Of a stretch of DNA of 24,000 nt, positions 1 to 20,937 are shown piece by piece. This stretch comes from Sporocytophaga sp. (GTDB taxonomy: Bacteria; Bacteroidota; Bacteroidia; Cytophagales; Cytophagaceae). Positions within the stretch are counted from its first letter, which is position 1. Each line of letters opens with the position of its first letter. The DNA is taken from positions 244,188 through 268,187 of the forward strand of contig JANQAB010000002.1 in NCBI GenBank assembly GCA_024707265.1. The letters run 5' to 3'. Made by a program: the position numbers and the translations under genes. The notes under the pieces are model-generated. The model was not told the origin of the DNA. It did no database searches and was given only the letters and a program-made list of their open reading frames with translations.

Positions 1-75
1 GTAAGAGAAATTGCTGAAATTACAGGATTAAGTCCTGCTGGAGTTCAACATCATATTTCAAAACTAAAATCATGA
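1..75 (+). CDS. 3' end (24 codons) of an upstream gene with a helix-turn-helix-like C-terminal tail; N-terminus lies outside the window
   Basis: Frame 1 is open from the window edge and reads VREIAEITGLSPAGVQHHISKLKS, then TGA at 73-75. The IAExTGLSxxxVxxHIxKL pattern is typical of an HTH recognition-helix region. The stop overlaps the next start (ATGA at 72-75). Confidence 0.5.
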   Translation, partial: VREIAEITGLSPAGVQHHISKLKS

Positions 76-692
76 GCGATAATTCTAGAAGACCCATTTT
101 ATATAATGGAGAGTTATATAGTAGCCCGATTTCAAAGGGTAGTTCTGGACCTACTAAAGAACCCTATGTAAGTTTTGAAGTAGCAAGGGAAAAAGTACTT
201 AGCGATTTAAGTTTTACTAAAGAGAAACTTCGAAGTATTCCTTCGAAATCCAAATTGCCTAATGAAGCGATTATTTGCATTAGAATGCAGTCTGAATTCT
301 CTGCCAAATCATATTATCCAGATTCTTTATTTGATAATGTCAAAACTAAGTATGGTTTAAAAGAAATCGGCTCTAGAATTTGGAAAAGCATTGATGAAGC
401 TAATGTAGAAACGGGTAAACTTTTCTTTGTCAGAACTACTGAAGATGCGATATCAAACTTCGAAGATATTCTTTCAAAGGAAATCAATATCACAAAGAAA
501 TTTTCTACTGATATTAGAAAAATATCATCAATAGATATCTTACTACCTTCAGAACAAGTTTTGGGTATTGGAGATGATTGGGCTCAAGGTAGATTAGAAG
601 CAGTTCTTCACCCATTTAATATTGATAAAGATTATGCATTACCTCATTTTTGGATCTTATTAATACATCGGGAGGAGATATTGGAAAGGTGA
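72..692 (+). CDS. 206-aa hydrophilic protein with no signal peptide; likely the N-terminal module of the defence-associated S8 peptidase family, either a separate gene or split from the next ORF
   Basis: ATG at 72 overlaps the upstream stop. From memory, the sequence RRPILYNGELYSSPI...PYVSFEVAREKV...SAKSYYPDSLF resembles the conserved N-terminal region of cytoplasmic S8 peptidases encoded next to AAA ATPases. The ORF ends at TGA 690-692, overlapping the next ORF. Confidence 0.6.
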   Translation: MSDNSRRPILYNGELYSSPISKGSSGPTKEPYVSFEVAREKVLSDLSFTKEKLRSIPSKSKLPNEAIICIRMQSEFSAKSYYPDSLFDNVKTKYGLKEIGSRIWKSIDEANVETGKLFFVRTTEDAISNFEDILSKEINITKKFSTDIRKISSIDILLPSEQVLGIGDDWAQGRLEAVLHPFNIDKDYALPHFWILLIHREEILER

Positions 693-2362
693 GGTTCAAG
701 CAATATGGAGAAGGAATTACATTTATTAGCTTTATAGGTGATAAAAATATATTAAATGCGGTATCTGGATATAATCCTTTGAGAACAATACACCCGCTAA
801 AAGTAAGAAGTTTGCCGGCAAGCCCAAGATCTCATTCAATATTCTCAGGGCCTAATCCACCTACATTTAATGAGAAATCGCAAATAACTGTTGGAGTTAT
901 AGATGGAGGAACCAATATAAATCCCTATTTAAATAATTATGTTGAAATTATTGAAAGCGTTTCAGGAAGCCCATTAGCTGGTTATATGGACCATGGAACC
1001 CAAGTTTGTGGTACAGTACTTTATGGGCCGTTAAATGAATTTACTTCAAAAGATGTATTACCCGAGCCGTCTTTATCTGTCAAAAGCTTCAGAGTACTTT
1101 CAGATGATACGATAGATCCAGATCTATATGAGGTTATTGATGCAATAGAAGATATTGTTCCTGCTCATAAAGAAATCTCAGTTTATAATTTAAGCTTGGG
1201 ACCAGCAGGCCCAATATTAGATGATAGCATTAGTCGTTTTACTTATTCATGCGACTTATTAAGTAAAAATCATGATATTCTTTTTTGCGTTGCCGTAGGT
1301 AATGACGGAGACGTAGATGGATATAATAGAATTCAATCTCCTGCAGATATGGTAAATGGGCTTGCAGTGGGGGCATATACTAAAATAGACGGGAAAATTG
1401 AACGAGCCTCTTATAGCTGTATTGGTCCTGGAAGAGAGGGTAATAAAATGAAACCAGATCTGGTTGCTTTTGGAGGATGTGATAGAACTCCAATACATCT
1501 TATTGGTTCAGATGTTGGTATGAAAGTTTTAAGTGCAGGTACAAGCTATGCTTCACCTCTGGTAGCTAGAGCTGCAGGTCTATTAATAGGTGGAAGTTCA
1601 AACATTCTTTCTCCTCTTATTGCCCGCGCTTTATTGATACATAAGGTTGCGGAGGTTAACTATAATAATAGTCATCATATTGAAACCGGACATGGAGTAT
1701 TACCAGATGATATTAATGATATTGTAAGTTGCCCTCAAAAATCTTATACATTAATTTATAAAGGAGAGATTACCGAAGGACAATATGCAGAATTTCAAAT
1801 TCCATGGGAAAATGAGATAAAAGAGGGGAAAGTTACATTTCGTTGGACAATAGCGATTTTAACTGATGTAGATCATCTAAGCCCAGATGACTATACAACT
1901 TCAGGAGTGGAAGTAACCTTTTACCCAAATAGGTCAAATTATTGCTTCAGTAGACAGAAAAGCGGAGAAAAAAAGAAAACCCAAAATATAAATCTAGATT
2001 TATTCCCAGAAAAAGAGAATGAACTCATTCTGGATGGTTGGGTTCGATCAAATTTTCCAGTTAGTGAATCTGGGAAATCGGCATATATGACAGAAGAAGA
2101 GTTAAGAGCGAATTTGAAATGGGATAGTTTAAACTCTAAGAATATTAAAAAAAGAGCTGATAAAATAAGCAATCCTTTCTTTCATTTACATGCTTTAGGT
2201 CGAGGGAGTAGACATACTCAAGGGAAAGTCAAATTTGCATTAATTATAACTGTAGAAGCTCCAAAATCAACAATAGATTTGTATTCTACTATTATTAAAA
2301 ATTATTCTGAATTAGCCCCTATTAACCTAAACGTTAAAGCAACACTTTCAGTAAGGACATAG
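650..2362 (+). CDS. S8 family serine peptidase (subtilase) with a C-terminal non-catalytic domain; start uncertain (TTG 650, GTG 689, or fused to the upstream ORF)
   Basis: Subtilase triad motifs occur in the canonical order: GVIDGG (Asp codon 902-904), HGTQVCG (His codon 992-994), GTSYASP (Ser codon 1544-1546). No N-terminal signal peptide is visible in either candidate N-terminus. GTG 689-691 overlaps the upstream stop as GTGA. Confidence 0.85.
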   Translation: MDLINTSGGDIGKVRFKQYGEGITFISFIGDKNILNAVSGYNPLRTIHPLKVRSLPASPRSHSIFSGPNPPTFNEKSQITVGVIDGGTNINPYLNNYVEIIESVSGSPLAGYMDHGTQVCGTVLYGPLNEFTSKDVLPEPSLSVKSFRVLSDDTIDPDLYEVIDAIEDIVPAHKEISVYNLSLGPAGPILDDSISRFTYSCDLLSKNHDILFCVAVGNDGDVDGYNRIQSPADMVNGLAVGAYTKIDGKIERASYSCIGPGREGNKMKPDLVAFGGCDRTPIHLIGSDVGMKVLSAGTSYASPLVARAAGLLIGGSSNILSPLIARALLIHKVAEVNYNNSHHIETGHGVLPDDINDIVSCPQKSYTLIYKGEITEGQYAEFQIPWENEIKEGKVTFRWTIAILTDVDHLSPDDYTTSGVEVTFYPNRSNYCFSRQKSGEKKKTQNINLDLFPEKENELILDGWVRSNFPVSESGKSAYMTEEELRANLKWDSLNSKNIKKRADKISNPFFHLHALGRGSRHTQGKVKFALIITVEAPKSTIDLYSTIIKNYSELAPINLNVKATLSVRT

Positions 2363-2429: not shown

Positions 2430-2768
2430 TTAATGATAAAAAAGCTTCTGGTATTTGCAGCTTGGTCTATAATTTAAGGACCGTAGAGCTTTCCCTACGG
2501 TCTCGGTAATTATTTTTTTAGGGGCATCTGAAGCTTCTAAGATCTTCAAAGCTTTTTCATATGCAGAAAAAAGCTTTTTGTTCTGTGGCTCAGAAATTAA
2601 AAGGTCAAATCTATAATTCTCTTTGACTGCCTTATCACTTAATAAGTTTAAAAAGCCATAATTATGTACAGCCTTAACATTTATCGAATTTTCATCTGTA
2701 AGGTCAAATCCAATAGGTTTAATTAGATTTAAAGAGCCATTTTTCCAGGCATAATCAATTTTTAATTG
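2430..2768 (-). pseudogene. 3' fragment (about 113 codons) of an ORF interrupted by the IS21 element; product unknown
   Basis: The tracked ORF 2430-2792 takes its first 8 codons (MAQFHRNY) from the IS21 terminal repeat, so its start is an artefact. The real coding sequence continued upstream across the IS insertion point. I recognise no motif in it. Confidence 0.4.
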
Positions 2769-2773
2769 ATAAT
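2769..2773. repeat. Putative target-site duplication (ATAAT), left copy
   Basis: ATAAT lies immediately outside the IS21 terminus TCCGGTGAAATTGAGCCA. An identical ATAAT lies immediately outside the other terminus at 5383-5387. Confidence 0.55.
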
Positions 2774-2815
2774 TCCGGTGAAATTGAGCCACCCTTCCGG
2801 CCTAAATTGAGCCAC
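2774..2815. repeat. IS21 istB-proximal terminal repeats (2 copies)
   Basis: TCCGGTGAAATTGAGCCAC (2774-2792) and TTCCGGCCTAAATTGAGCCAC (2795-2815) are reverse complements of the repeat unit found at 5215-5384. Confidence 0.85.
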
Positions 2816-2840
2816 CCTGTTTTGATTTTGCAAAGTTAAT

Positions 2841-3584
2841 TTAGGCAGATTTTTTGGATGATTTAGCTTTTCTTAAAGATTCTCCTTTTAATTCAATTTT
2901 GTGTGCATTGGCTGTCATTCTGTCCATGATAGCGTCAGCGAGTGTAGGTTCTCCAATGTATTCATGCCATTTGTTTACTGGAAGCTGCGATGTTACCATG
3001 ATGGACTTTTTACCATATCTGTCTTCCAGCATTTGTAATAGGGCTAATCTCAGGTTGTTGTCAATCGGCTGCAAGCCGAAGTCGTCGAGAATTATCAGGT
3101 GAACCTTCTCTATCTGATTTAGCATTTTTACGTAAGTGCCTTCAAGTTTTGATTGAGCAATTTTTTCAAGTAACCTTGTCATTCCCATATAAAGTACCTT
3201 ATATCCCATAGCACAGACCTGTCTTCCAAGGGCACAAGCCAGATAGCTTTTGCCACAACCTGTAGCTCCTGTTATCAGAACATTTTCCGCTCTTTCTATA
3301 AAACCGCAGTCAGCCAATATCGCGAGCTTATCGTTGGTAAAGTTTCTTTCCGATGAGCAATGTATCTGCTCCAGAACTGCGTTATACCGCAGTTTGCTGA
3401 GCCTGATATACATTTGTGTTTTCTTATGGGTTCGGTACTGGAGCTCTGCTTCTGCCAGTCTTGCAATAGCTTCATGTAATGATAGCTGTTCATGTATCGG
3501 CATTGATAAGAATGCTTCGTACGCTTTGCCCATTCCTGTAAGCTTTAGATTATAAAGTTGCTCAAGTGTTTGTCTGGTGTTCAT
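2841..3584 (-). CDS. istB: IS21-family helper ATPase IstB
   Basis: 247 aa with Walker A GATGCGKS, Walker B-like LIILDDFG, and the typical IstB N-terminus (LKLTGMGKAYEAFL). It lies directly downstream of istA. Confidence 0.92.
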   Translation of the reverse strand: MNTRQTLEQLYNLKLTGMGKAYEAFLSMPIHEQLSLHEAIARLAEAELQYRTHKKTQMYIRLSKLRYNAVLEQIHCSSERNFTNDKLAILADCGFIERAENVLITGATGCGKSYLACALGRQVCAMGYKVLYMGMTRLLEKIAQSKLEGTYVKMLNQIEKVHLIILDDFGLQPIDNNLRLALLQMLEDRYGKKSIMVTSQLPVNKWHEYIGEPTLADAIMDRMTANAHKIELKGESLRKAKSSKKSA

Positions 3585-3611
3585 TTTAATTGATTTTTAA
3601 TTGGTTTAACA

Positions 3612-5165
3612 TTAATATTCTTTAGGACCTCTGATGTTTTCATGAACAGGTATGGTGATCTGTGATGATGGCTCTTCCTGCTTATCCCTGTTATTGGATA
3701 ATATGTTTTCAATAGTTTTGTATGACAGATATCCGGCATACAGACCTATTCTACAGGCGTTATTTGTACGTTCATTTCCATATTTATCGGCCAGGCGCAA
3801 AAGACCTCTACAGGAAAGAAAGGCTTGTTGAGTAAACTGCCTTGATTCAAGCAGGCCGCTTACCACCTGTAGAAAGTATTCTCCTATAGGTTTGGCCTTT
3901 TGTAAAAAGTAGTCTTTATCCCATCCCAGAGTCTCTTTATATTTGAGGTGACTGGTAGGCATGTGAGTATCTGTAGTTGTGTAACAGTGTTTCTGGTAGT
4001 TCCTTTTATGAGCTGCTATTCTTTTATGATCCAGGTAAACCTCAACTTGTTCGCTGTCATATACAATGGTGGTTTGTTTACCTATGTATTGATAAGGAAC
4101 GCTATAGTAGTGCATGTCCTGTCCTAGCAAGACATGATAGTTCTTCTGCACTTTAGCTCTGACTGAATATTTCACTTCAAAGGCTTGTAGTGGAAGGGGG
4201 TTAAGCAAAGGTTGTTCATCCTGGACAAATCGATCTTTTCTGGAATAATCCTTTTTCTGCATCAAGCAACCATTATGTTTTTCCAAATTCAACTTTATGT
4301 GGTAATTCAACTCTGAGAGGCTATAAACCACGTTGTCTCTTAATGGGGCATAAATACGCTTGTATGCAAGATCTACAGACTTTTCTACACGGGCCTTGTC
4401 TTTAGGCTTTTCCACACGTGTAGCCGACAGGGTGGTGTTATAGAAAACGGAGAACTGTTCTGCAAGGGCAGTAAAGGTTGGTTCATAGCGGTCGCTTTTT
4501 ATCACCATTTGCCTCATGTTATCTGTGAGAATTGAAGCGGGAGCTCCTCCAAAGTATTGCAGACACCGGTTTAATGCTCCCACTAACTGATCAAGGGTAG
4601 CATTATGCAAGGCTTCAACATAGGTATAACCGCTATAGGGCAATACAGCAACGAAAACAGGACATTCTAAGACTTCACCGCTGGTCTTGTCGATATAGGA
4701 AAGTTTCTTTCCCGCAAAGTCAATCTCTAAAACTTCTGCAGGCTTATGCTGTTGTGGCATCACTGCATTGCGAATCTGACTATAGGTATTCAGGTGCTCA
4801 CAAAATTGTTGATAGGAATAGCCGTCAGGATCTTCTCTGCGATATTCTTCCCACAACAACATTCGGGTTACTCCGGTGCGCTTAAGCTCTGAAAGGTAAT
4901 GCCCCAGCTTGGGAGATAAACGACCATACCGTTCATCCTTTCTGCTTTCGATAGCATGATTATAGACAACACTACCCAGAGTATCGTCTGAGAGAGAGAG
5001 TAATTGATTAAAGTCATATCCCGAGGTTTTAAACCGTTTTAAGTAGGTGGCAACTGTATTGCGACTCATGCCAAGTGTATTGGCAATTTGTCGTTCTGAG
5101 AGGCCGGAAATGAGTAATTGTAATAGTCTGCGTATTTGCAACATGGTTTTAGCTTGGTTAGCCAT
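3612..5165 (-). CDS. istA: IS21-family transposase IstA
   Basis: 517 aa with an N-terminal HTH (LSERQIANTLGMSRNTVATYLKRF) followed by a DDE integrase-type core (EIDFAGKKL..., ILTDNMRQ...). Size and pairing with istB are typical of IS21. Confidence 0.92.
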   Translation of the reverse strand: MANQAKTMLQIRRLLQLLISGLSERQIANTLGMSRNTVATYLKRFKTSGYDFNQLLSLSDDTLGSVVYNHAIESRKDERYGRLSPKLGHYLSELKRTGVTRMLLWEEYRREDPDGYSYQQFCEHLNTYSQIRNAVMPQQHKPAEVLEIDFAGKKLSYIDKTSGEVLECPVFVAVLPYSGYTYVEALHNATLDQLVGALNRCLQYFGGAPASILTDNMRQMVIKSDRYEPTFTALAEQFSVFYNTTLSATRVEKPKDKARVEKSVDLAYKRIYAPLRDNVVYSLSELNYHIKLNLEKHNGCLMQKKDYSRKDRFVQDEQPLLNPLPLQAFEVKYSVRAKVQKNYHVLLGQDMHYYSVPYQYIGKQTTIVYDSEQVEVYLDHKRIAAHKRNYQKHCYTTTDTHMPTSHLKYKETLGWDKDYFLQKAKPIGEYFLQVVSGLLESRQFTQQAFLSCRGLLRLADKYGNERTNNACRIGLYAGYLSYKTIENILSNNRDKQEEPSSQITIPVHENIRGPKEY

Positions 5166-5214
5166 AAATTCTTCAGCTTAAAAAGCTGAAGTTACAGTTG
5201 CAAAATCAAAAAAA

Positions 5215-5382
5215 GTGGCTCAGTTTATGCCGGAATGGCAGTTCTTAAAATTGAAAAAATACAAATTTAAGTGGCTCAGTTTGGTCCGGAATTCCCTGAT
5301 TCTTCTACTAAAAAGTGGCTCAGTTTGGTCCGGAATCAGTGGCTCAGTTTAGTCCGGAATTACTGGCTCAATTTAGTCCGGA
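5215..5382. repeat. IS21 istA-proximal terminal repeats (5 direct copies)
   Basis: GTGGCTCAGTTT(A/G)(T/G)(G/T)CCGGAAT-type units begin at 5215, 5271, 5315, 5339 and 5364. The outermost copy abuts the element end. Confidence 0.85.
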
Positions 5383-5387
5383 ATAAT
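5383..5387. repeat. Putative target-site duplication (ATAAT), right copy
   Basis: Identical pentamer to 2769-2773, immediately outside the IS21 terminus ...AATTTAGTCCGGA. Confidence 0.55.
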
Positions 5388-6129
5388 CAGTTTGATCGCA
5401 TAGCACACCTTTTGTTTTATCTACTGGATGTGAATACAACCTTCGATAGTCCATATTATCTTTTGCTCTTGTAACATAGAAAGCATCTGACAAACAAATC
5501 TTGTAAAGCCTTTTGTAATCCACATATCCTCGATCCATAATATAAAAGCTATTAGCTTCAAATGGAATAAGATCCAATACATTTACATCGTGGACAGAAG
5601 CTGTAGAAAAAAGAATGAACTCAGGAATAGATGTTTTTAAATCCAGTTGAGTATGCAGTTTGATACCACTTTTTGTAGATCGAAAAGTAGCCCAATAAAA
5701 GGTAGATAAACACAAATCAATGGTAGTAGAATCTATAGCAAATACGTTGTTTTTAAGCGGTACATCCAATTCAGTATCTCCTAAATATAAATGTTTGGCT
5801 TGTTTTATTAATATCATAGCCAAACCTTCATAAATTTTATAGGAGCGATTTTCATTCGCTTTAGAAAGTGTACTTTTAGCAACAACATCTCCAATACCTA
5901 AGTGATACATTTTATCGGCATTAGCCCTTAAACACATCATCGTATCACTTAAACTTTCACGATGAGTAAGCTGACCAAATGCCATGCAAAGAAATTGTTT
6001 CCAACAACTAAAATCTTTAACCTTATAATCACCATCATAGCGTTTTACAAGGGTCTGAAACTGTTTATGAGAAACAATCTCTATAATTTGTGAGAAAATA
6101 TATCTACCTCGATTCATGATTATTGACAA
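5383..6129 (-). pseudogene. IS4-family (DUF4372 + DDE_Tnp_1 type) transposase, N-terminal two thirds only (about 247 codons), truncated at the IS21 junction
   Basis: The N-terminus RGRYIFSQIIEIVSHKQFQTLVKRYDGDYKVKDFSCWKQFLCMAFGQLTHRESL is typical of Bacteroidota IS4 transposases. DDE residues sit in AIDSTTIDL and FYIMDRGYVDY, and the FYVTRAKDNMDY motif is present. The expected C-terminal third with the catalytic Glu (YKNRWQIELFFK-type motif) is absent, and the ORF runs into IS21 repeat sequence. Confidence 0.8.
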
Positions 6130-7682: not shown

Positions 7683-9578
7683 ATGGTAAAAATTAAAAGC
7701 ATATATCCATTTAATCTTTCATTTCATACTTTATGGGTATATGCATTTATTTTATTGATTTCCTTTGGGGCGACAGAGGTAATAGCAGAAGGCACTAAAG
7801 AGTTAATGCCTAAACCCACCGATCATGGAGTTGTTCAGATATTCGATCGCTCCAGGTTGTTTATGACCTATGACGCTCCGAAAGAAAACCGGCTAAATAT
7901 TCACATCTGCAAGGCTGGTGAAATTATTTATTTCGGTTTTAATCAGCCGGATGAAGATGTTTATTTCAGGCTTAAAAGTCCCGATGGTACTGTAGTAATG
8001 GGACCTACCTTGTTGCCTGCTTCCGGTGCTGGTTTTATTGCTAGTTACAACCAGGCCGTTACAGGTCCTGTACAATTATCTCCAGGAGGCTATAATGCGC
8101 TTTCCTATACTTCTCTTGTAGATGGAGATTATTATATTGAATTTAATCCGGTGTCTCCAACAACAATAACGGATTCAAAGAGATATTTTGATCTGTTTGA
8201 TATAACTGTCGCAGATGGAAATACTGCTAAACCCGGGCGGTTATGGTCTTATACATGGGATATCAATACTACCAATGCTGATTATTCTTTTAACGGGAAG
8301 ATGTATGTGCTGTCAACAGATAGTATTGTTACTTCCATTGACTTTAATGGAATCCAGCCTTATGGTGCTACCATCAGCGCAAATTCAAAGGGGTGCACCA
8401 ATACCGGAATGGCCATTAATGACAGAACCAGCAGGGTAGGCAATGTAACTTATCCCGAGTATAAAATCTTTCTGAATGATCCTGATCCTGCATGTTATCC
8501 CACAGGCACCTTTGGTAATTTCTTACAAAAGCCATTTATAAGTGGATGTGATCCTGATAACAGGTGTATAAACATTTCTGTAGATAAGCCTGGGAACATT
8601 GAAGTGGTTTTGGATATAAATGGGCAGGATGGATATCAGGCTAATACTACAGATAGAATTCTCTCTGCTTCTGTAACCAAAGGGCAGAACTGTATCAAAT
8701 GGGATACAAGAGATGGTAAGGGAAACATAGTGCCTCCTGGTACACCGGTGGAAATAGAGATAAGTTATGGAAATGGAATCACGCATCTACCGTTGTATGA
8801 TGTTGAGCATCATAAAAACGGATATATTGTTGAACTGGTAAGACCGATAGGCCCTAAACCCCAGCTATTCTGGGATGATAGTCAACTCAAAGCTGGGATT
8901 GCTATTGATGGACTAGCCAATCTTACCGGGTGCTCCGATGCAGATGGATGTCATCAATGGATAGACAGGGGAACAGACGATTGCAGACAAGAATGTCCTG
9001 AAACTATAAATACCTGGTGGTATGCCAGGATGGTAAAAGAGAATGTTGAATATCTTGTATCACTTCCCAAGGTGGATGCTGAAACAAGAAATAAACCCGG
9101 TGAGATTAATGATACACTTGTTTGTGTTAATGTTCCAAACTTCCGCTTAAGTGGCAGCTTTACAAATGCTTCAGGTGCTCAATGGATTGGAGGTAATGGA
9201 GTTTTTAACGCTTCGCGTGCCGGACTTAGTCCTTCGTATATTCCAACTGAAGAGGAAAGAAAGTCGGGATTGGTTAAGTTATATTTAAAATCAGACGGTC
9301 AGGCTAAATGTCCTTCTGCGACAGATTCTATCTTGATCCGTTTTAAGAAACTTCCTGAAGCAGAAGCTGGAGACTCTCTTGTCCTATGCGAAACGACAAA
9401 AGTTATTAATTTGAATGGCATTGTCAAAAATGCTACAGGAAGCATCTGGTCAGGAGGCAACGGGAGCTTTGGAGATAAAAATAAAATAACAACAACCTAT
9501 ACGCCTTCTGCAGCTGAGTTAAAATCAAATTCTTTTTTTGTTAAGACTTGCTTCTGTAAACGCAGCTCCATGTCCTGA
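7683..9578 (+). CDS. 5' part of a large T9SS type-B cargo / gliding-motility-associated surface protein; frame breaks at the T7 run 9533-9539
   Basis: N-terminal hydrophobic signal-like segment (LWVYAFILLISFGATEVIA). The body is Cys-rich with repeats. The last 13 codons after the T7 run (VKTCFCKRSSMS) do not fit the repeat pattern, whereas the +1 frame does. Confidence 0.75.
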   Translation: MVKIKSIYPFNLSFHTLWVYAFILLISFGATEVIAEGTKELMPKPTDHGVVQIFDRSRLFMTYDAPKENRLNIHICKAGEIIYFGFNQPDEDVYFRLKSPDGTVVMGPTLLPASGAGFIASYNQAVTGPVQLSPGGYNALSYTSLVDGDYYIEFNPVSPTTITDSKRYFDLFDITVADGNTAKPGRLWSYTWDINTTNADYSFNGKMYVLSTDSIVTSIDFNGIQPYGATISANSKGCTNTGMAINDRTSRVGNVTYPEYKIFLNDPDPACYPTGTFGNFLQKPFISGCDPDNRCINISVDKPGNIEVVLDINGQDGYQANTTDRILSASVTKGQNCIKWDTRDGKGNIVPPGTPVEIEISYGNGITHLPLYDVEHHKNGYIVELVRPIGPKPQLFWDDSQLKAGIAIDGLANLTGCSDADGCHQWIDRGTDDCRQECPETINTWWYARMVKENVEYLVSLPKVDAETRNKPGEINDTLVCVNVPNFRLSGSFTNASGAQWIGGNGVFNASRAGLSPSYIPTEEERKSGLVKLYLKSDGQAKCPSATDSILIRFKKLPEAEAGDSLVLCETTKVINLNGIVKNATGSIWSGGNGSFGDKNKITTTYTPSAAELKSNSFFVKTCFCKRSSMS

Positions 9579-9891
9579 TGTCTTTGATGAGGTTAAGATT
9601 ATATATCAACAAGCCCCTCATATAGAAGCGGGTTTGCCTATTAGTCTATGCGCAGATAAAGATTCTGTTCAGGTATCAGGGAGCATTATGAATGCTACTG
9701 GCTTAATATGGAGTGGAGGAATGGGCAGCTTTTCTTCTAACTCAAAAGCGCAAACGTATTACAGGTTTAATCCGATTGAAAAATCAGGAACTGTTACACT
9801 TACCTTAGAAGCAAAAGGTGTAGCGCCATGTGGCCCTGTTTCTGATGAGGTTAAAATTTTGATTAATCCATTACCAATTGTAAGTGCAGGC
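9108..9891 (+). repeat. Three tandem protein-coding modules of about 88 aa within the cargo gene
   Basis: Each module reads C..(6-9)..(S/N)G..(T/K/M)NA(S/T)G..W.GG.G.F ... (P/N)..E.KS(G/N)...L.L......(A/K)(P)C(P/G)...D...I......P...AG. The second module spans the frameshift. Confidence 0.8.
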
Positions 9892-11310
9892 AATGATCTG
9901 AGTAAATGCAACGGTGACGTTGCTTTATTTGAAGCAAAATCTTCTCCTTCTTATTCTTATGAATGGATAGATGAAGCAGGTAACGTTGTGGGTAAAGAAA
10001 CTACACTGAAAGTTACTTCCTCTGATGACCGGACTTTTATTCTTAAGGGTAAAGACAATTATGGTTGTATGTCTTTTGACACGGTACAACTTATAACTAT
10101 TTCAACTCCGAAATTAATTCTTCCAAAAGATCTATGTCTCAGTGATACTTTGAAGATCAATGCTGTTTCTCAATCAGCATCTTATGCAGGTACTTACACA
10201 TGGAAAAGAGATGGAATGGTATTGCCAGGCAAAGTGACATCCGAGATTGGTATAACTGAAGCAGGTGTTTATGAGGTAGACTTTAAGAATGGGAGCTGTA
10301 AAGCTTCTGCAAAATCTACGGTATGGGCTTCCCCGGCTTTAACTCTTGCTGATTCTGTTATTGAATGTGAAAGTACAAAAGTTGTTTTATCTGCGAGTAT
10401 GGTTGAGAATGCTTTTTATACCTGGTCTCTCAATCATTCGCAATTGCCTTTTACCACAGCATCTATTGAAGTAATATCTTCTGATTCAATTCAAAAATAT
10501 TATGTTGAGGTAAAAGACAATCATGGTTGCAGGGACAAAGACAGCATCTTGCTTGTTGGTATTCCTTTACCAAAAATTGTGGCAACTGATACTGGAATTT
10601 GTCCCGGAAAAGAAGTCGTATTAAGACCTGTCATAACGAATACACAGAATGCCATCGGACTTCCTCTTGAATACAGTTGGATGGTTAATGGGAATGCCTC
10701 GGACAATCATGATAACATTTATAGAACGTCTGATGAAGGGGAATATCAATTTTCTGTTCAAGTGGGAAGTTGCTATAACTTCAAATCCTTTATAGTAAAA
10801 AGGTATCCTGCACCAACGAGGTCACTTCCTGAATTGATTAAGTTTTGCAGAGAAGAGACACCCTTTTATGAACTTAGTGCAGGAACAGGAACACGATATC
10901 TATGGCATCAAACGGGCGACACTTCTCAGTCAATAAGTGTTGCATTGCCAGGGAGGTATTCAGTTTTAATTACCAATGAATATGGTTGCACAATTGAAGA
11001 TGCAACTGAGGTACGAGAGGTATGTCCTCCGAGAGTTTTTATCTCTAACTCATTCTCTCCAAATAAAGATGGAACGAATGACACTTATGATGTATTTGGA
11101 GCAAACTTTACAAATTTTAGAATGCTGATCTTCAATAGATGGGGAGAAATAATCTTTGAAAGCAATGATAGGAATGAGGTGTGGGATGGCCAATACAGAG
11201 GGGAACCCATGCCTGTAGGTGTATATCCATGGATGATAACTTATGAAGGTGATTCGGAAGAATACAAAGGTCCATATAAAATGGAAGGTAGCGTCACAAT
11301 TGTGAGATAA
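9538..11310 (+). CDS. 3' part of the same T9SS type-B cargo gene, ending in a gliding-motility-associated C-terminal (CHU_C / type-B sorting) domain
   Basis: The C-terminus VFISNSFSPNKDGTNDTYDVFG...FRMLIFNRWGEIIFES...VWDGQYRGEPMPVGVYPWMITY matches the TIGR04131/PF13585 consensus (PN.F.PN.DG.ND.F......IFNRWG..VF....WDG...G...P.G.Y.Y). The tracked TTG start at 9538 lies inside the T run and is probably not a real start. Confidence 0.8.
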   Translation: MLRLASVNAAPCPDVFDEVKIIYQQAPHIEAGLPISLCADKDSVQVSGSIMNATGLIWSGGMGSFSSNSKAQTYYRFNPIEKSGTVTLTLEAKGVAPCGPVSDEVKILINPLPIVSAGNDLSKCNGDVALFEAKSSPSYSYEWIDEAGNVVGKETTLKVTSSDDRTFILKGKDNYGCMSFDTVQLITISTPKLILPKDLCLSDTLKINAVSQSASYAGTYTWKRDGMVLPGKVTSEIGITEAGVYEVDFKNGSCKASAKSTVWASPALTLADSVIECESTKVVLSASMVENAFYTWSLNHSQLPFTTASIEVISSDSIQKYYVEVKDNHGCRDKDSILLVGIPLPKIVATDTGICPGKEVVLRPVITNTQNAIGLPLEYSWMVNGNASDNHDNIYRTSDEGEYQFSVQVGSCYNFKSFIVKRYPAPTRSLPELIKFCREETPFYELSAGTGTRYLWHQTGDTSQSISVALPGRYSVLITNEYGCTIEDATEVREVCPPRVFISNSFSPNKDGTNDTYDVFGANFTNFRMLIFNRWGEIIFESNDRNEVWDGQYRGEPMPVGVYPWMITYEGDSEEYKGPYKMEGSVTIVR

Positions 11311-19569: not shown

Positions 19570-19623
19570 ATTGGCTCATAAGTTGAGTCAATTATGAGCC
19601 AATTGAGCCAATTATGAGCCAAT
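19570..19623. repeat. 12-bp perfect inverted repeat plus three tandem (AT)GAGCCAATT units overlapping the 3' end of the 441-aa gene
   Basis: ATTGGCTCATAA (19570-19581) pairs with TTATGAGCCAAT (19592-19603) across a 10-nt loop. ATGAGCCAATT, GAGCCAATT and ATGAGCCAATT then run in tandem to 19623. Confidence 0.7.
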
Positions 19624-20937
19624 TAAAATATAATTTGTGCCTGCACCGATATCACCGGTTCTTTTTAAAACTTTATGCTTTTCCACCAATTCTGTCAAAT
19701 CTCTTGTAGCAGTTGCTTTGGAAACATTATTTAAGATTTGATATTCACTATTGGTAACTCTCCCTTTTTCTTTAACAAATAATAACGCCTTCACCTGCCT
19801 TTCATTCAATCCAAGTTTAACAAGATGATCTTCATTCAGAATATCTTTGATAATCGTAAGCAGAAACCCGCCATCTTGTTCTATCATTTCTGGTTCGGGA
19901 AGTTCTGCTGCTTTGCAACTGTCAATGATCTTGATAGTACCTCTACCCCAGGCGTCAATAAATCCGCCCTTAAAACAAACGTCGGCAATAACGGGGTTTC
20001 TAGGTCTTGAGGCATGAGGGCGCTTTAATGCGTCAAGTGTTAAGCCTTCCGGAAGGAAACCTTCATTCCATATATTGATCTTTTCGTCATAAACCCTGAT
20101 TTGAGTCGGAGCCCCCATATAATTGCGGTGTACCAAAGCATTAAGAATCATCTCACGCATTGCGGCAACTGGATATTCTCTTTTTTCTATGCGATGCATT
20201 CCTTCAAATTCAATTGGTCTAGTTAAAAACTTATGGTTGAGCTGATTTAAAACTGCCTGCAGAAGGACAATTAAATTACCTTCTTCTGTTTCCTGAAATT
20301 TCAGATCTGTATCATCCTTTCCAAAACGGCCAATTTTAACAAAAGTATTGGGATAAAATTTAGCTGGTTCTTTACCAAACAGAATAATGGCGGCTCGTTT
20401 TAACTGTCCATTTTCACTGAGCCTTAGCTTGTCAAACAATTCCGGTAAAGTTAATCCATCATTTTCAGGCAAACGACCGGCTTTCTCAGATGCTTTTAAA
20501 AAAGTATCAACTGTCTTTTCGTTTATGTCGCCAAAGCTTGCACGCTGCTCTATTACATCATCCCATGTTTTTCCAGATTTCTTCAAAAGAAATTCATTCA
20601 GAGAAGCTCCGGTTAATTCTTGTTTGGTACTACCGCTACGGTAATAATATCTACCTCTGACTGAAATAGGAACAGAATACGGATGCGTTTTTATTTCAAT
20701 AAAATACTTTCCTTTTTCTTCATGAAGATTTATTTCAGAAGAAATACCCATTGAGTTCTTGATTTTGTTGGGTATATCATCCATCAGCTTTTTATAATCG
20801 TCAATGCCGACAACTTTTCCAGTATCGTCCTTACCAATAAAAATTACACCACCCTGGGCATTTGCAAATCCGCAAATCCATTTCAGATAATCATCATGCC
20901 AGCTTTGTTTGTATTCAATGTTTTGTTGTTCGGGCAT
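19612..20937 (-). CDS. AlbA_2 (Schlafen-like) + HATPase_c_4 + C-terminal wHTH protein, usually annotated as ATP-binding protein or putative DNA-binding protein
   Basis: The N-terminus EQQNIEYKQSWHDDYLKWICGFANAQGGVIFIGKDDTGKVVGI matches the AlbA_2 signature. The centre, REMILNALVHRNY...IWNEGFLPEGLT...RPRNPVIADVCFKGGFIDAWGRGTIKI, matches HATPase_c_4. The C-terminal NSEYQILNNVSKATATRDLTELVEK is an HTH. Confidence 0.8.
   Translation of the reverse strand: MPEQQNIEYKQSWHDDYLKWICGFANAQGGVIFIGKDDTGKVVGIDDYKKLMDDIPNKIKNSMGISSEINLHEEKGKYFIEIKTHPYSVPISVRGRYYYRSGSTKQELTGASLNEFLLKKSGKTWDDVIEQRASFGDINEKTVDTFLKASEKAGRLPENDGLTLPELFDKLRLSENGQLKRAAIILFGKEPAKFYPNTFVKIGRFGKDDTDLKFQETEEGNLIVLLQAVLNQLNHKFLTRPIEFEGMHRIEKREYPVAAMREMILNALVHRNYMGAPTQIRVYDEKINIWNEGFLPEGLTLDALKRPHASRPRNPVIADVCFKGGFIDAWGRGTIKIIDSCKAAELPEPEMIEQDGGFLLTIIKDILNEDHLVKLGLNERQVKALLFVKEKGRVTNSEYQILNNVSKATATRDLTELVEKHKVLKRTGDIGAGTNYILIGS

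Follow-up and report, generated by a model that had tools for sequence, protein, structure and literature searches.

The first 2,362 nucleotides of a 24,000-nucleotide stretch of Sporocytophaga sp. DNA (assembly GCA_024707265.1, contig JANQAB010000002.1, positions 244,188 to 268,187; hereafter the window) hold the end of one gene and, directly behind it on the same strand, the coding sequence of an S8 subtilase. An earlier sequence-only reading of this DNA had proposed three consecutive, translationally coupled genes, namely one with a helix-turn-helix (HTH) tail, an independent 206-amino-acid (aa) module and a cytoplasmic subtilase, and had likened them to IetAS, a pair of an ATPase (IetA) and an S8 protease (IetS) that was reportedly shown to be anti-phage by Gao in 2020. 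According to our analysis, the locus forms the distal part of an operon of two genes, ietA and ietS, a diverged copy of this known system, and almost certainly one with a single, interrupted ietS gene.

The plus strand is open in frame 1 from base 1 to the TGA at 73-75 (translation VREIAEITGLSPAGVQHHISKLKS, followed by the stop). An ATG at 72-74, which shares the sequence ATGA (72-75) with this stop, opens a 206-aa open reading frame (ORF) extending from 72 to 692 (TGA at 690-692). The 570-aa S8 ORF runs from a TTG at 650, or alternatively from a GTG at 689, to 2362 (TAG at 2360-2362) and shares 43 nucleotides (nt) with the 206-aa ORF, with a GTGA at 689-692. These three overlapping plus-strand ORFs are all present, with the ATGA, the 43-nt overlap and the GTGA, as the sequence-only reading had described them. 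In GenBank, the 206-aa ORF is listed as the "hypothetical protein" MCR6637842.1 and the 570-aa ORF, with its start at TTG 650, as the "S8 family peptidase" MCR6637843.1.

The two frames meet at a run of five Ts (T5) at 647-651, CAT TTT|TGG (cat ttt [t]tg gat). Both are open over about 63 nt (629-692), where this run is the sole homopolymer of at least 5 bases. With six Ts (T6) instead of five, the junction reads CAT TTT TTG GAT, that is, H-F-L-D (H-F-L-D-L-I), and a single protein of 763 aa results. In a 60-sequence alignment of the family, F193 is invariant and the repaired junction matches the consensus LxHFxxL. The 206-aa ORF consists of residues 1 to 193 of IetS plus 13 out-of-frame codons; these final 13 residues have no counterpart in the homologues, while the overlapping frame has one. 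What had been taken for translational coupling thus marks a -1 frame break inside one gene.

Homologues, profiles and the upstream partner

Besides the entry of the metagenome-assembled genome (MAG) itself, three homologues of the 206-aa ORF were found. None of them ends at its stop, and two run on ('...EAVLHPFEKD...ALKNFLELLKKSGV...KYKQYESGITFVS...YNPLRTIH') into what is, in the other frame, the start of the 570-aa ORF. The repaired 763-aa query gave 571 matches at E <= 1e-10. The best 120 of these are, with few exceptions, single proteins about 750 to 790 aa long, with 98-100% query coverage and 44-59% identity. We also compared seven related loci, from Tenacibaculum, Mucilaginibacter, Chryseobacterium, a Bacteroidetes MAG, two further metagenome contigs and a Paceibacterota MAG. 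In all seven the S8 gene is one unbroken ORF of 762 to 775 aa. A protein-guided metagenome scan added only one new full locus. Exact copies of the junction DNA, in its T5 or T6 form, were sought in metagenomes of the Joint Genome Institute (JGI), and no independent one was found.

The profile searches gave the same picture. On its own, the 206-aa ORF has no match in Pfam, NCBIfam or PADLOC. The PADLOC IetS profile recognizes the 570-aa ORF alone (E 4.5e-49, 165 bits), in an alignment that begins at profile position 209. With the repaired protein, PDLC02197 (IetS) aligns from residue 39 to 578 with profile positions 39 to 591 of 749 (E 7.9e-53, 178 bits), and PDLC02201 aligns up to position 773 of 781 (E 1.9e-41). 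The 206-aa ORF had looked like a novel module because the profile signal appears only once the ORFs are joined. The IetS profiles, the homologues and the one-unit fold described below therefore identify it as the front part of IetS. The two GenBank proteins are pieces of one gene, and the operon has two genes rather than three.

We then considered the cut gene upstream. Its 24-codon tail at 1-75 matches the winged-HTH families HTH_24 and HTH_5, and it agrees with the C-terminal end of the 374-aa IetA of locus L010 at 21 of its first 22 positions; the tails of loci L001 to L009 are very similar. An AAA+ protein of 370 to 380 aa is encoded directly upstream of the S8 gene, on the same strand, in 7/7 related loci. 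Its stop falls within a range from 11 nt ahead of the S8 start to 8 nt beyond it, and the protein ends in '...ITVRE[LI]xEITGLSxxGVQHH[IL]SK...'. The ATGA overlap in the window fits this arrangement. The IetA proteins of L001 to L003 match the PADLOC IetA profile with 269 to 276 bits over positions 6 to 372 of 374, HTH included, and the AAA domain of the related IetA proteins, which belong to the classic clade of AAA+ ATPases, is closest to p97/Cdc48/PAN. Judged by these comparisons, the cut gene is very probably ietA, and the HTH its normal C-terminus. The earlier suggestion of an "ATPase or sensor" upstream, for which an examination of homologue neighbourhoods had been proposed, probably stands as to the ATPase and falls as to a separate sensor or regulator.

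Judged together with its relatives, the pair resembles described IetAS systems (Gao_Iet; "IteA/IteS" at NCBI) in several respects. The order is the same, in that the ATPase gene comes first and reaches up to or past the start of the S8 gene; the sizes are similar (IetA, 363 to 380 aa; IetS, 735 to 775 aa); the C-terminal HTH of IetA also occurs in the pRi/pTi-type protein; the S8 protein is cytoplasmic with an N-terminal extension of about 260 aa and a C-terminal domain, as here; and the PADLOC IetS and IetA profiles match along their length. By its sequence, the pair appears to correspond to the PADLOC definition of IetAS in both profile and synteny. In contrast to the exemplars, the copy in the window is chromosomal, lies beside insertion sequence (IS) elements and has an interrupted ietS frame. 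IetS shares 23% of its residues with the IteS that NCBI names on a Dongshaea plasmid and 25%, over the catalytic core only, with an Agrobacterium pRi-type S8 protein.

According to the sources that cite the original work, the first description of IetAS concerned Agrobacterium pTiC58 (Yamamoto 2009, cited in PMC8562856 and PMC13069673). On pTiC58 IetS is the toxin and IetA the antitoxin, and an AAA/S8 pair is a working toxin-antitoxin (TA) system in mycoplasmas (PMC8562856). Members of the family stabilize plasmids (PMC13069673; bioRxiv 10.1101/2022.08.27.505566; PMC8562856). Phage defence by IetAS needs the protease active site, and an ietA mutant could not be made (PMC13069673). The system acts by abortive infection, with toxicity triggered by SPbeta YosG (bioRxiv 10.1101/2022.08.27.505566), and its mechanism is still called unknown (PMC13069673). 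TA132/133 of Mycoplasma mycoides, in which the gene of a 353-aa AAA antitoxin precedes that of a Peptidase_S8 toxin of 757 aa, is like the pair in the window in its description; it is also chromosomal, with scars of horizontal transfer, and belongs to a different host phylum (PMC8562856). ietHAS, which adds an SNF2 helicase to IetAS (PMC13069673), has the IetA and IetS core in common with our locus, but no helicase gene lies beside the pair in the seven related loci. The locus is thus an already-known TA and abortive-infection system, and what is new is the diverged copy.

Several points weigh against the assignment to IetAS. The NCBIfam best match of the 570-aa ORF is IteS_antiphage (NF042956), as an IetAS-like identity would have it, but with 113.9 bits it stays below the cut-off of 900; likewise, the IetA proteins of L001 and L003 match IteA_antiphage (NF042959) best, with 233 to 239 bits against a cut-off of 510. 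Since these values are far below the equivalog cut-offs, the proteins belong to a different, diverged clade. This clade is common to Bacteroidota and, at about 50% identity, to MAGs of the candidate phyla radiation (CPR) and Babeliales, and its members are IetAS candidates by sequence likeness. Moreover, the window holds only the last 24 ietA codons, the ATPase body lying beyond its edge.

Two other accounts of the S8 gene were weighed, and both appear hardly tenable. One is the three-gene operon itself, in which a 206-aa module stands by itself between an HTH protein and a 570-aa subtilase starting at TTG 650 or GTG 689. NCBI lists MCR6637842.1 and MCR6637843.1 as separate proteins and the ORF boundaries are as described, but none of the three non-self homologues of the 206-aa ORF ends where it does, two of them run into the S8 frame, its 13-residue tail is without counterpart, and the profile and structure evidence favours one polypeptide. 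The other account sees no role in defence and takes the product for a common S8 protease, secreted or degradative, of a cellulolytic member of the Bacteroidota. The host genus degrades polymers, and genes of the type IX secretion system (T9SS) are found in the window as well. Against this, the protein has no signal peptide, transmembrane segment or T9SS C-terminal domain, its best profile matches are IetS and IteS, the gene is paired with ietA in all related loci examined, and relatives lie on plasmids or integrative elements beside RES, HEPN_AbiU2, integrase and MobC genes. Coordinates of the IetAS features and of the neighbouring elements are given in Table 1.

Table 1. Features of the interrupted ietAS locus and of the DNA directly downstream (window coordinates)
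Feature	Position	Strand	Basis or remark
ietA 3' end, last 24 codons (winged-HTH C-terminus) and stop TGA 73-75	1..75	+	HTH_24/HTH_5 matches; identity to L010 C-terminus
ietS 5' part, codons 1-193 of 763	72..650	+	homologues among P0002-P0004 and L001-L003 proteins run into the S8 frame; PADLOC alignment
Frameshift site, T5 where T6 is required: one-base deletion or -1 frame change	647..651	+	sequence, open-frame overlap, family alignment
ietS 3' part, codons 194-763 and stop TAG	650..2362	+	annotation MCR6637843.1; full-length single-protein homologues
Predicted pro-region, two tandem ferredoxin-like alpha/beta domains (residues ~62-165 and ~170-245)	255..805	+	AF2 models, DSSP, Foldseek
S8 catalytic domain	878..1675	+	Pfam PF00082, subtilisin BPN' alignment, invariant columns
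Predicted C-terminal beta-sandwich, ~220 aa	1703..2359	+	DSSP, structural matches, PADLOC PDLC02201
120-aa ORF, convergent on ietS	2430-2792	-	first ~7 codons inside the IS21 end
IS21-family element	~2772-5384	-	IstA 3612-5165, IstB 2841-3584
IS4-like transposase, 253 aa, DUF4372 and first half of DDE_Tnp_1	5368-6129	-	ends at the IS21 terminus

Predicted architecture of IetS and a possible mode of action

Peptidase_S8 (Pfam PF00082) matches residues 77 to 342 of the 570-aa ORF with 97 bits. The triad Asp85/His115/Ser299 in the numbering of this ORF corresponds to D278/H308/S492 of the repaired protein, and these residues align with the catalytic residues of subtilisin BPN'. Their codons lie at 902-904 (D278), 992-994 (H308) and 1544-1546 (S492), and that of the oxyanion residue N411 lies at 1301-1303. 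All four residues are invariant in the 60-sequence alignment, so that the triad, earlier read as intact, is indeed complete. The N-terminus of IetS (MSDNSRRPILYNGE...) is hydrophilic, with a 15-residue Kyte-Doolittle maximum of 0.43 within the first 60 residues. We detected no transmembrane segment or hydrophobic N-terminus in IetS (19-residue Kyte-Doolittle maximum, 1.46) and no Por_Secre_tail or CHU_C match in a Pfam scan. In agreement with the sequence-only reading, which had remarked on the missing signal peptide, IetS is predicted to be a cytoplasmic subtilase that carries neither a signal peptide nor a T9SS C-terminal domain.

The repaired protein was modelled with AlphaFold2 (AF2) as one confident body, with a predicted local distance difference test score (pLDDT) of 82.7 and a predicted template modelling score (pTM) of 0.85; the N-terminal 262 aa modelled alone reached a pLDDT of 88.1. 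According to the model and its DSSP assignment, a long helix (residues 35 to 55) precedes two ferredoxin-like alpha/beta units in tandem, the second of which (residues 172 to 242) has the order beta-alpha-beta-beta-alpha-beta and would lie just ahead of the catalytic domain, in the position of a subtilase propeptide. The frame break would fall in the first helix (residues 186 to 199) of this unit. Residues 558 to 729 are almost all strands in the DSSP assignment, and the C-terminal domain appears to resemble the P-domain or jelly-roll of other subtilases. The non-catalytic C-terminal domain of about 230 aa described earlier was recovered here as a beta-rich domain of about 220 aa.

Foldseek searches with the whole chain gave as top matches the pro-forms ProN-Tk-SP (3afg), pro-subtilisin E (3whi) and PCSK9, and also KP-43 and Kex2/furin, with E values from 3e-18 to 1e-11. 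The matches to Tk-SP, KP-43 and Kex2/furin reach past the catalytic domain. By sequence searches of the PDB, we found no solved structure of IetS or IetA. The zymogens Pro-Tk-SP, pro-subtilisin E, PCSK9 and Kex2/furin share with the model the layout of a propeptide-like unit, a catalytic domain and a beta-sandwich. In contrast to IetS, they are secreted and activate themselves by cleavage of the propeptide, while IetS would be cytoplasmic, with two tandem units, and dependent on a partner ATPase. From the model we infer for IetS the layout of a subtilase zymogen, in which a tandem ferredoxin-like pro-region precedes the S8 domain and a beta-sandwich.

A mode of action can be sketched on this basis, though only tentatively. 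In its boldest form, which we regard as less likely than not, IetS would be a cytoplasmic zymogen in which the N-terminal tandem ferredoxin-like pro-region serves both as an intramolecular inhibitor or chaperone and as a handle for the AAA+ ring of IetA, and a phage trigger that blocks IetA would free the protease. More generally, IetA would probably keep IetS latent, whether it grips or remodels only the pro-region or acts on the entire protein. Once a phage cue had disabled IetA, the freed IetS could cleave cellular proteins, and growth would stop. By analogy with the antitoxins of type II TA systems, the HTH of IetA probably autoregulates the operon. If true, the zymogen proposal would give a concrete and testable form to the unexplained mechanism of IetAS.

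Two observations call for caution about such a mechanism. The N-terminal model alone gave weak matches to tandem ACT/ferredoxin-like folds, with template modelling scores of 0.2 to 0.3, which place the likeness at the level of topology only. In addition, the pore-loop-1 position of the IetA of L010 (4884-6008) and of other IetA homologues reads S-L-[ML]-G, aligned with K-L-A-G of p97 D1 and M-W-F-G of p97 D2. The IetA pore loop is hence non-aromatic, like that of the non-threading D1 and not that of the threading D2, and this weakens the simple picture of IetA as an unfoldase. For the whole family rather than for this copy in particular, two small leads can be put to the test: the predicted likeness of IetS to a zymogen and the lack of an aromatic residue in the IetA pore loop.

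Origin of the frame break

The T missing at 647-651 is probably a homopolymer error of a long-read (Nanopore) MAG assembly, with the system of the organism intact; an artefact of this kind is favoured over a real mutation. For the locus as a whole, the best explanation, and a fairly probable one, is an IetAS pair whose ietS was split by an assembly homopolymer error. In the 60-sequence alignment, the invariant and nearly invariant residues of the family are all kept on both sides of the break. The sequence comes from a Sporocytophaga MAG of 2022 whose contig measures 1.29 Mb, a length that implies long reads. A study of the same year reports Sporocytophaga MAGs for which MinION R9.4.1 reads were the only data, assembled by means of metaFlye, Racon and medaka (PMC9501375).

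The window contains a second split gene. Two plus-strand ORFs at 7683-9578 (631 aa) and 9538-11310 (590 aa, with Ig_7 and a CHU_C T9SS signal) become one T9SS cargo protein of 1208 aa when one T is removed from a run of seven Ts (T7) at 9533-9539, and a repeat unit of about 80 aa crosses the junction. Apart from the ietS ORFs, it is the one same-strand pair in the 24 kb with open frames that overlap at a homopolymer; the seeming interruption of ileS at the end of the window is due to the window edge only. The T7 break reflects either an assembly error in a homopolymer or an adhesin gene subject to phase variation. As a second T-run break in an unrelated gene 9 kb away, it points to systematic sequencing error. 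The artefact also has points against it. The tie between the MAG and the study cited above is circumstantial, and the count of five Ts at 647-651 comes from the assembled sequence. Both breaks could be real, as loss of a TA toxin is tolerated and homopolymer phase variation of an adhesin is possible.

A real one-base deletion, which would make ietS a toxin-dead pseudogene and ietA an orphan antitoxin in a region reshaped by IS elements, seems to us rather unlikely, though it is the strongest of the competing accounts. The break would truncate IetS at residue 193, inside the first helix of the predicted propeptide-like domain, and a product started at 650 or 689 would be without the region covered by nearly all of the best 120 homologues. 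Toxin loss is a tolerated form of TA decay; in Mycoplasma, deletion of the ATPase alone was lethal, while deletion of the pair or of the protease was not (PMC8562856). An IS21 element and a truncated IS4-like element also lie directly downstream. Conversely, no second lesion was found, with the triad, the stop and the invariant and nearly invariant residues intact, so any inactivation would have to be very recent. The T-run break 9 kb away and the 1.29-Mb contig, which suggest a systematic error and a long-read MAG, argue against a pseudogene as well.

Use of the frame change by the cell, through programmed -1 frameshifting or a slipped-strand on/off switch of the protease, has very little in its favour. 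The site offers a U/T run on which tRNA-Phe could re-pair in the -1 frame, and a toxic abortive-infection effector is a plausible target of stochastic switching. However, the site (U UUU UGG) is not an X XXY YYZ heptamer, and its A-site codon UGG is unable to re-pair. The 108 nt downstream fold no better than shuffled sequences (z = -0.57), and a run of Ts is missing from the corresponding site in all seven homologous loci. With no slippery heptamer, no downstream structure and no conservation of the run, programmed frameshifting was rejected. A tract of 5 to 6 Ts is also short for a contingency tract, and the variant in which the T-run break is a real on/off switch of the toxic effector is the less likely one.

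With the assembly error as the preferred explanation, the practical outcome is a correction: after repair of the frame, an automated defence finder would report the IetAS pair. The MAG probably carries homopolymer indels, and other overlapping co-directional ORFs in it need caution.

Surroundings of the locus and of its relatives

Downstream of ietS lies the convergent 120-aa ORF (Table 1), which has no match in Pfam or NCBIfam and no homologue in a search of 5.8 billion proteins. It was rejected as a third component of the system because it belongs to no family and has no homologue, starts in the IS21 end, and no two related loci have the same genes downstream. The ORF is probably what remains of a gene that the IS interrupted. 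The IS elements reported directly downstream in the sequence-only reading are indeed there. The IS21 element carries a 27-nt terminal repeat, five times at 5210-5384 and twice at 2781-2818. We found no clear target-site duplication for it, and the flanks may therefore not have adjoined originally. The IS4-like transposase appears to have been truncated by the IS21 insertion.

Beyond the IS elements follow ordinary chromosomal genes: fabD, a T9SS cargo gene, PorP/SprF, a Na+/H+ exchanger, MATE, lspA and ileS. On this downstream side, two IS elements only, followed by housekeeping genes, fit an accessory insertion and provide no evidence for a defence island. Plasmids or integrative elements carry the pair in the relatives, with genes for integrase, MobC, ParA, RES and HEPN_AbiU2 nearby, and the related loci have no conserved third gene next to the pair.

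In Mucilaginibacter (L007/L008; 2566-4576 and 12811-14037), the pair lies on an integrative element with HEPN_AbiU2 and RES-domain genes just upstream, MobC/ParA and tyrosine integrase genes at the edges, and two conserved genes (425 and 288 aa) downstream. Members of the clade at about 45 to 55% identity occur in Bacteroidota, CPR (Paceibacterota, Parcubacteria and Minisyncoccia) and Babeliales (L003/L004 from a Paceibacterota MAG; P0002, P0076 and P0114), a distribution that suggests wide horizontal spread, reduced genomes included.

Elsewhere in the window, a 441-aa protein is encoded at 19612-20937 on the minus strand. It combines SLFN_AlbA_2 with HATPase_c_4 and belongs to the "putative DNA-binding/ATP-binding" type, which is often found in accessory regions. 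Two unnamed ORFs of 375 and 141 aa adjoin it.

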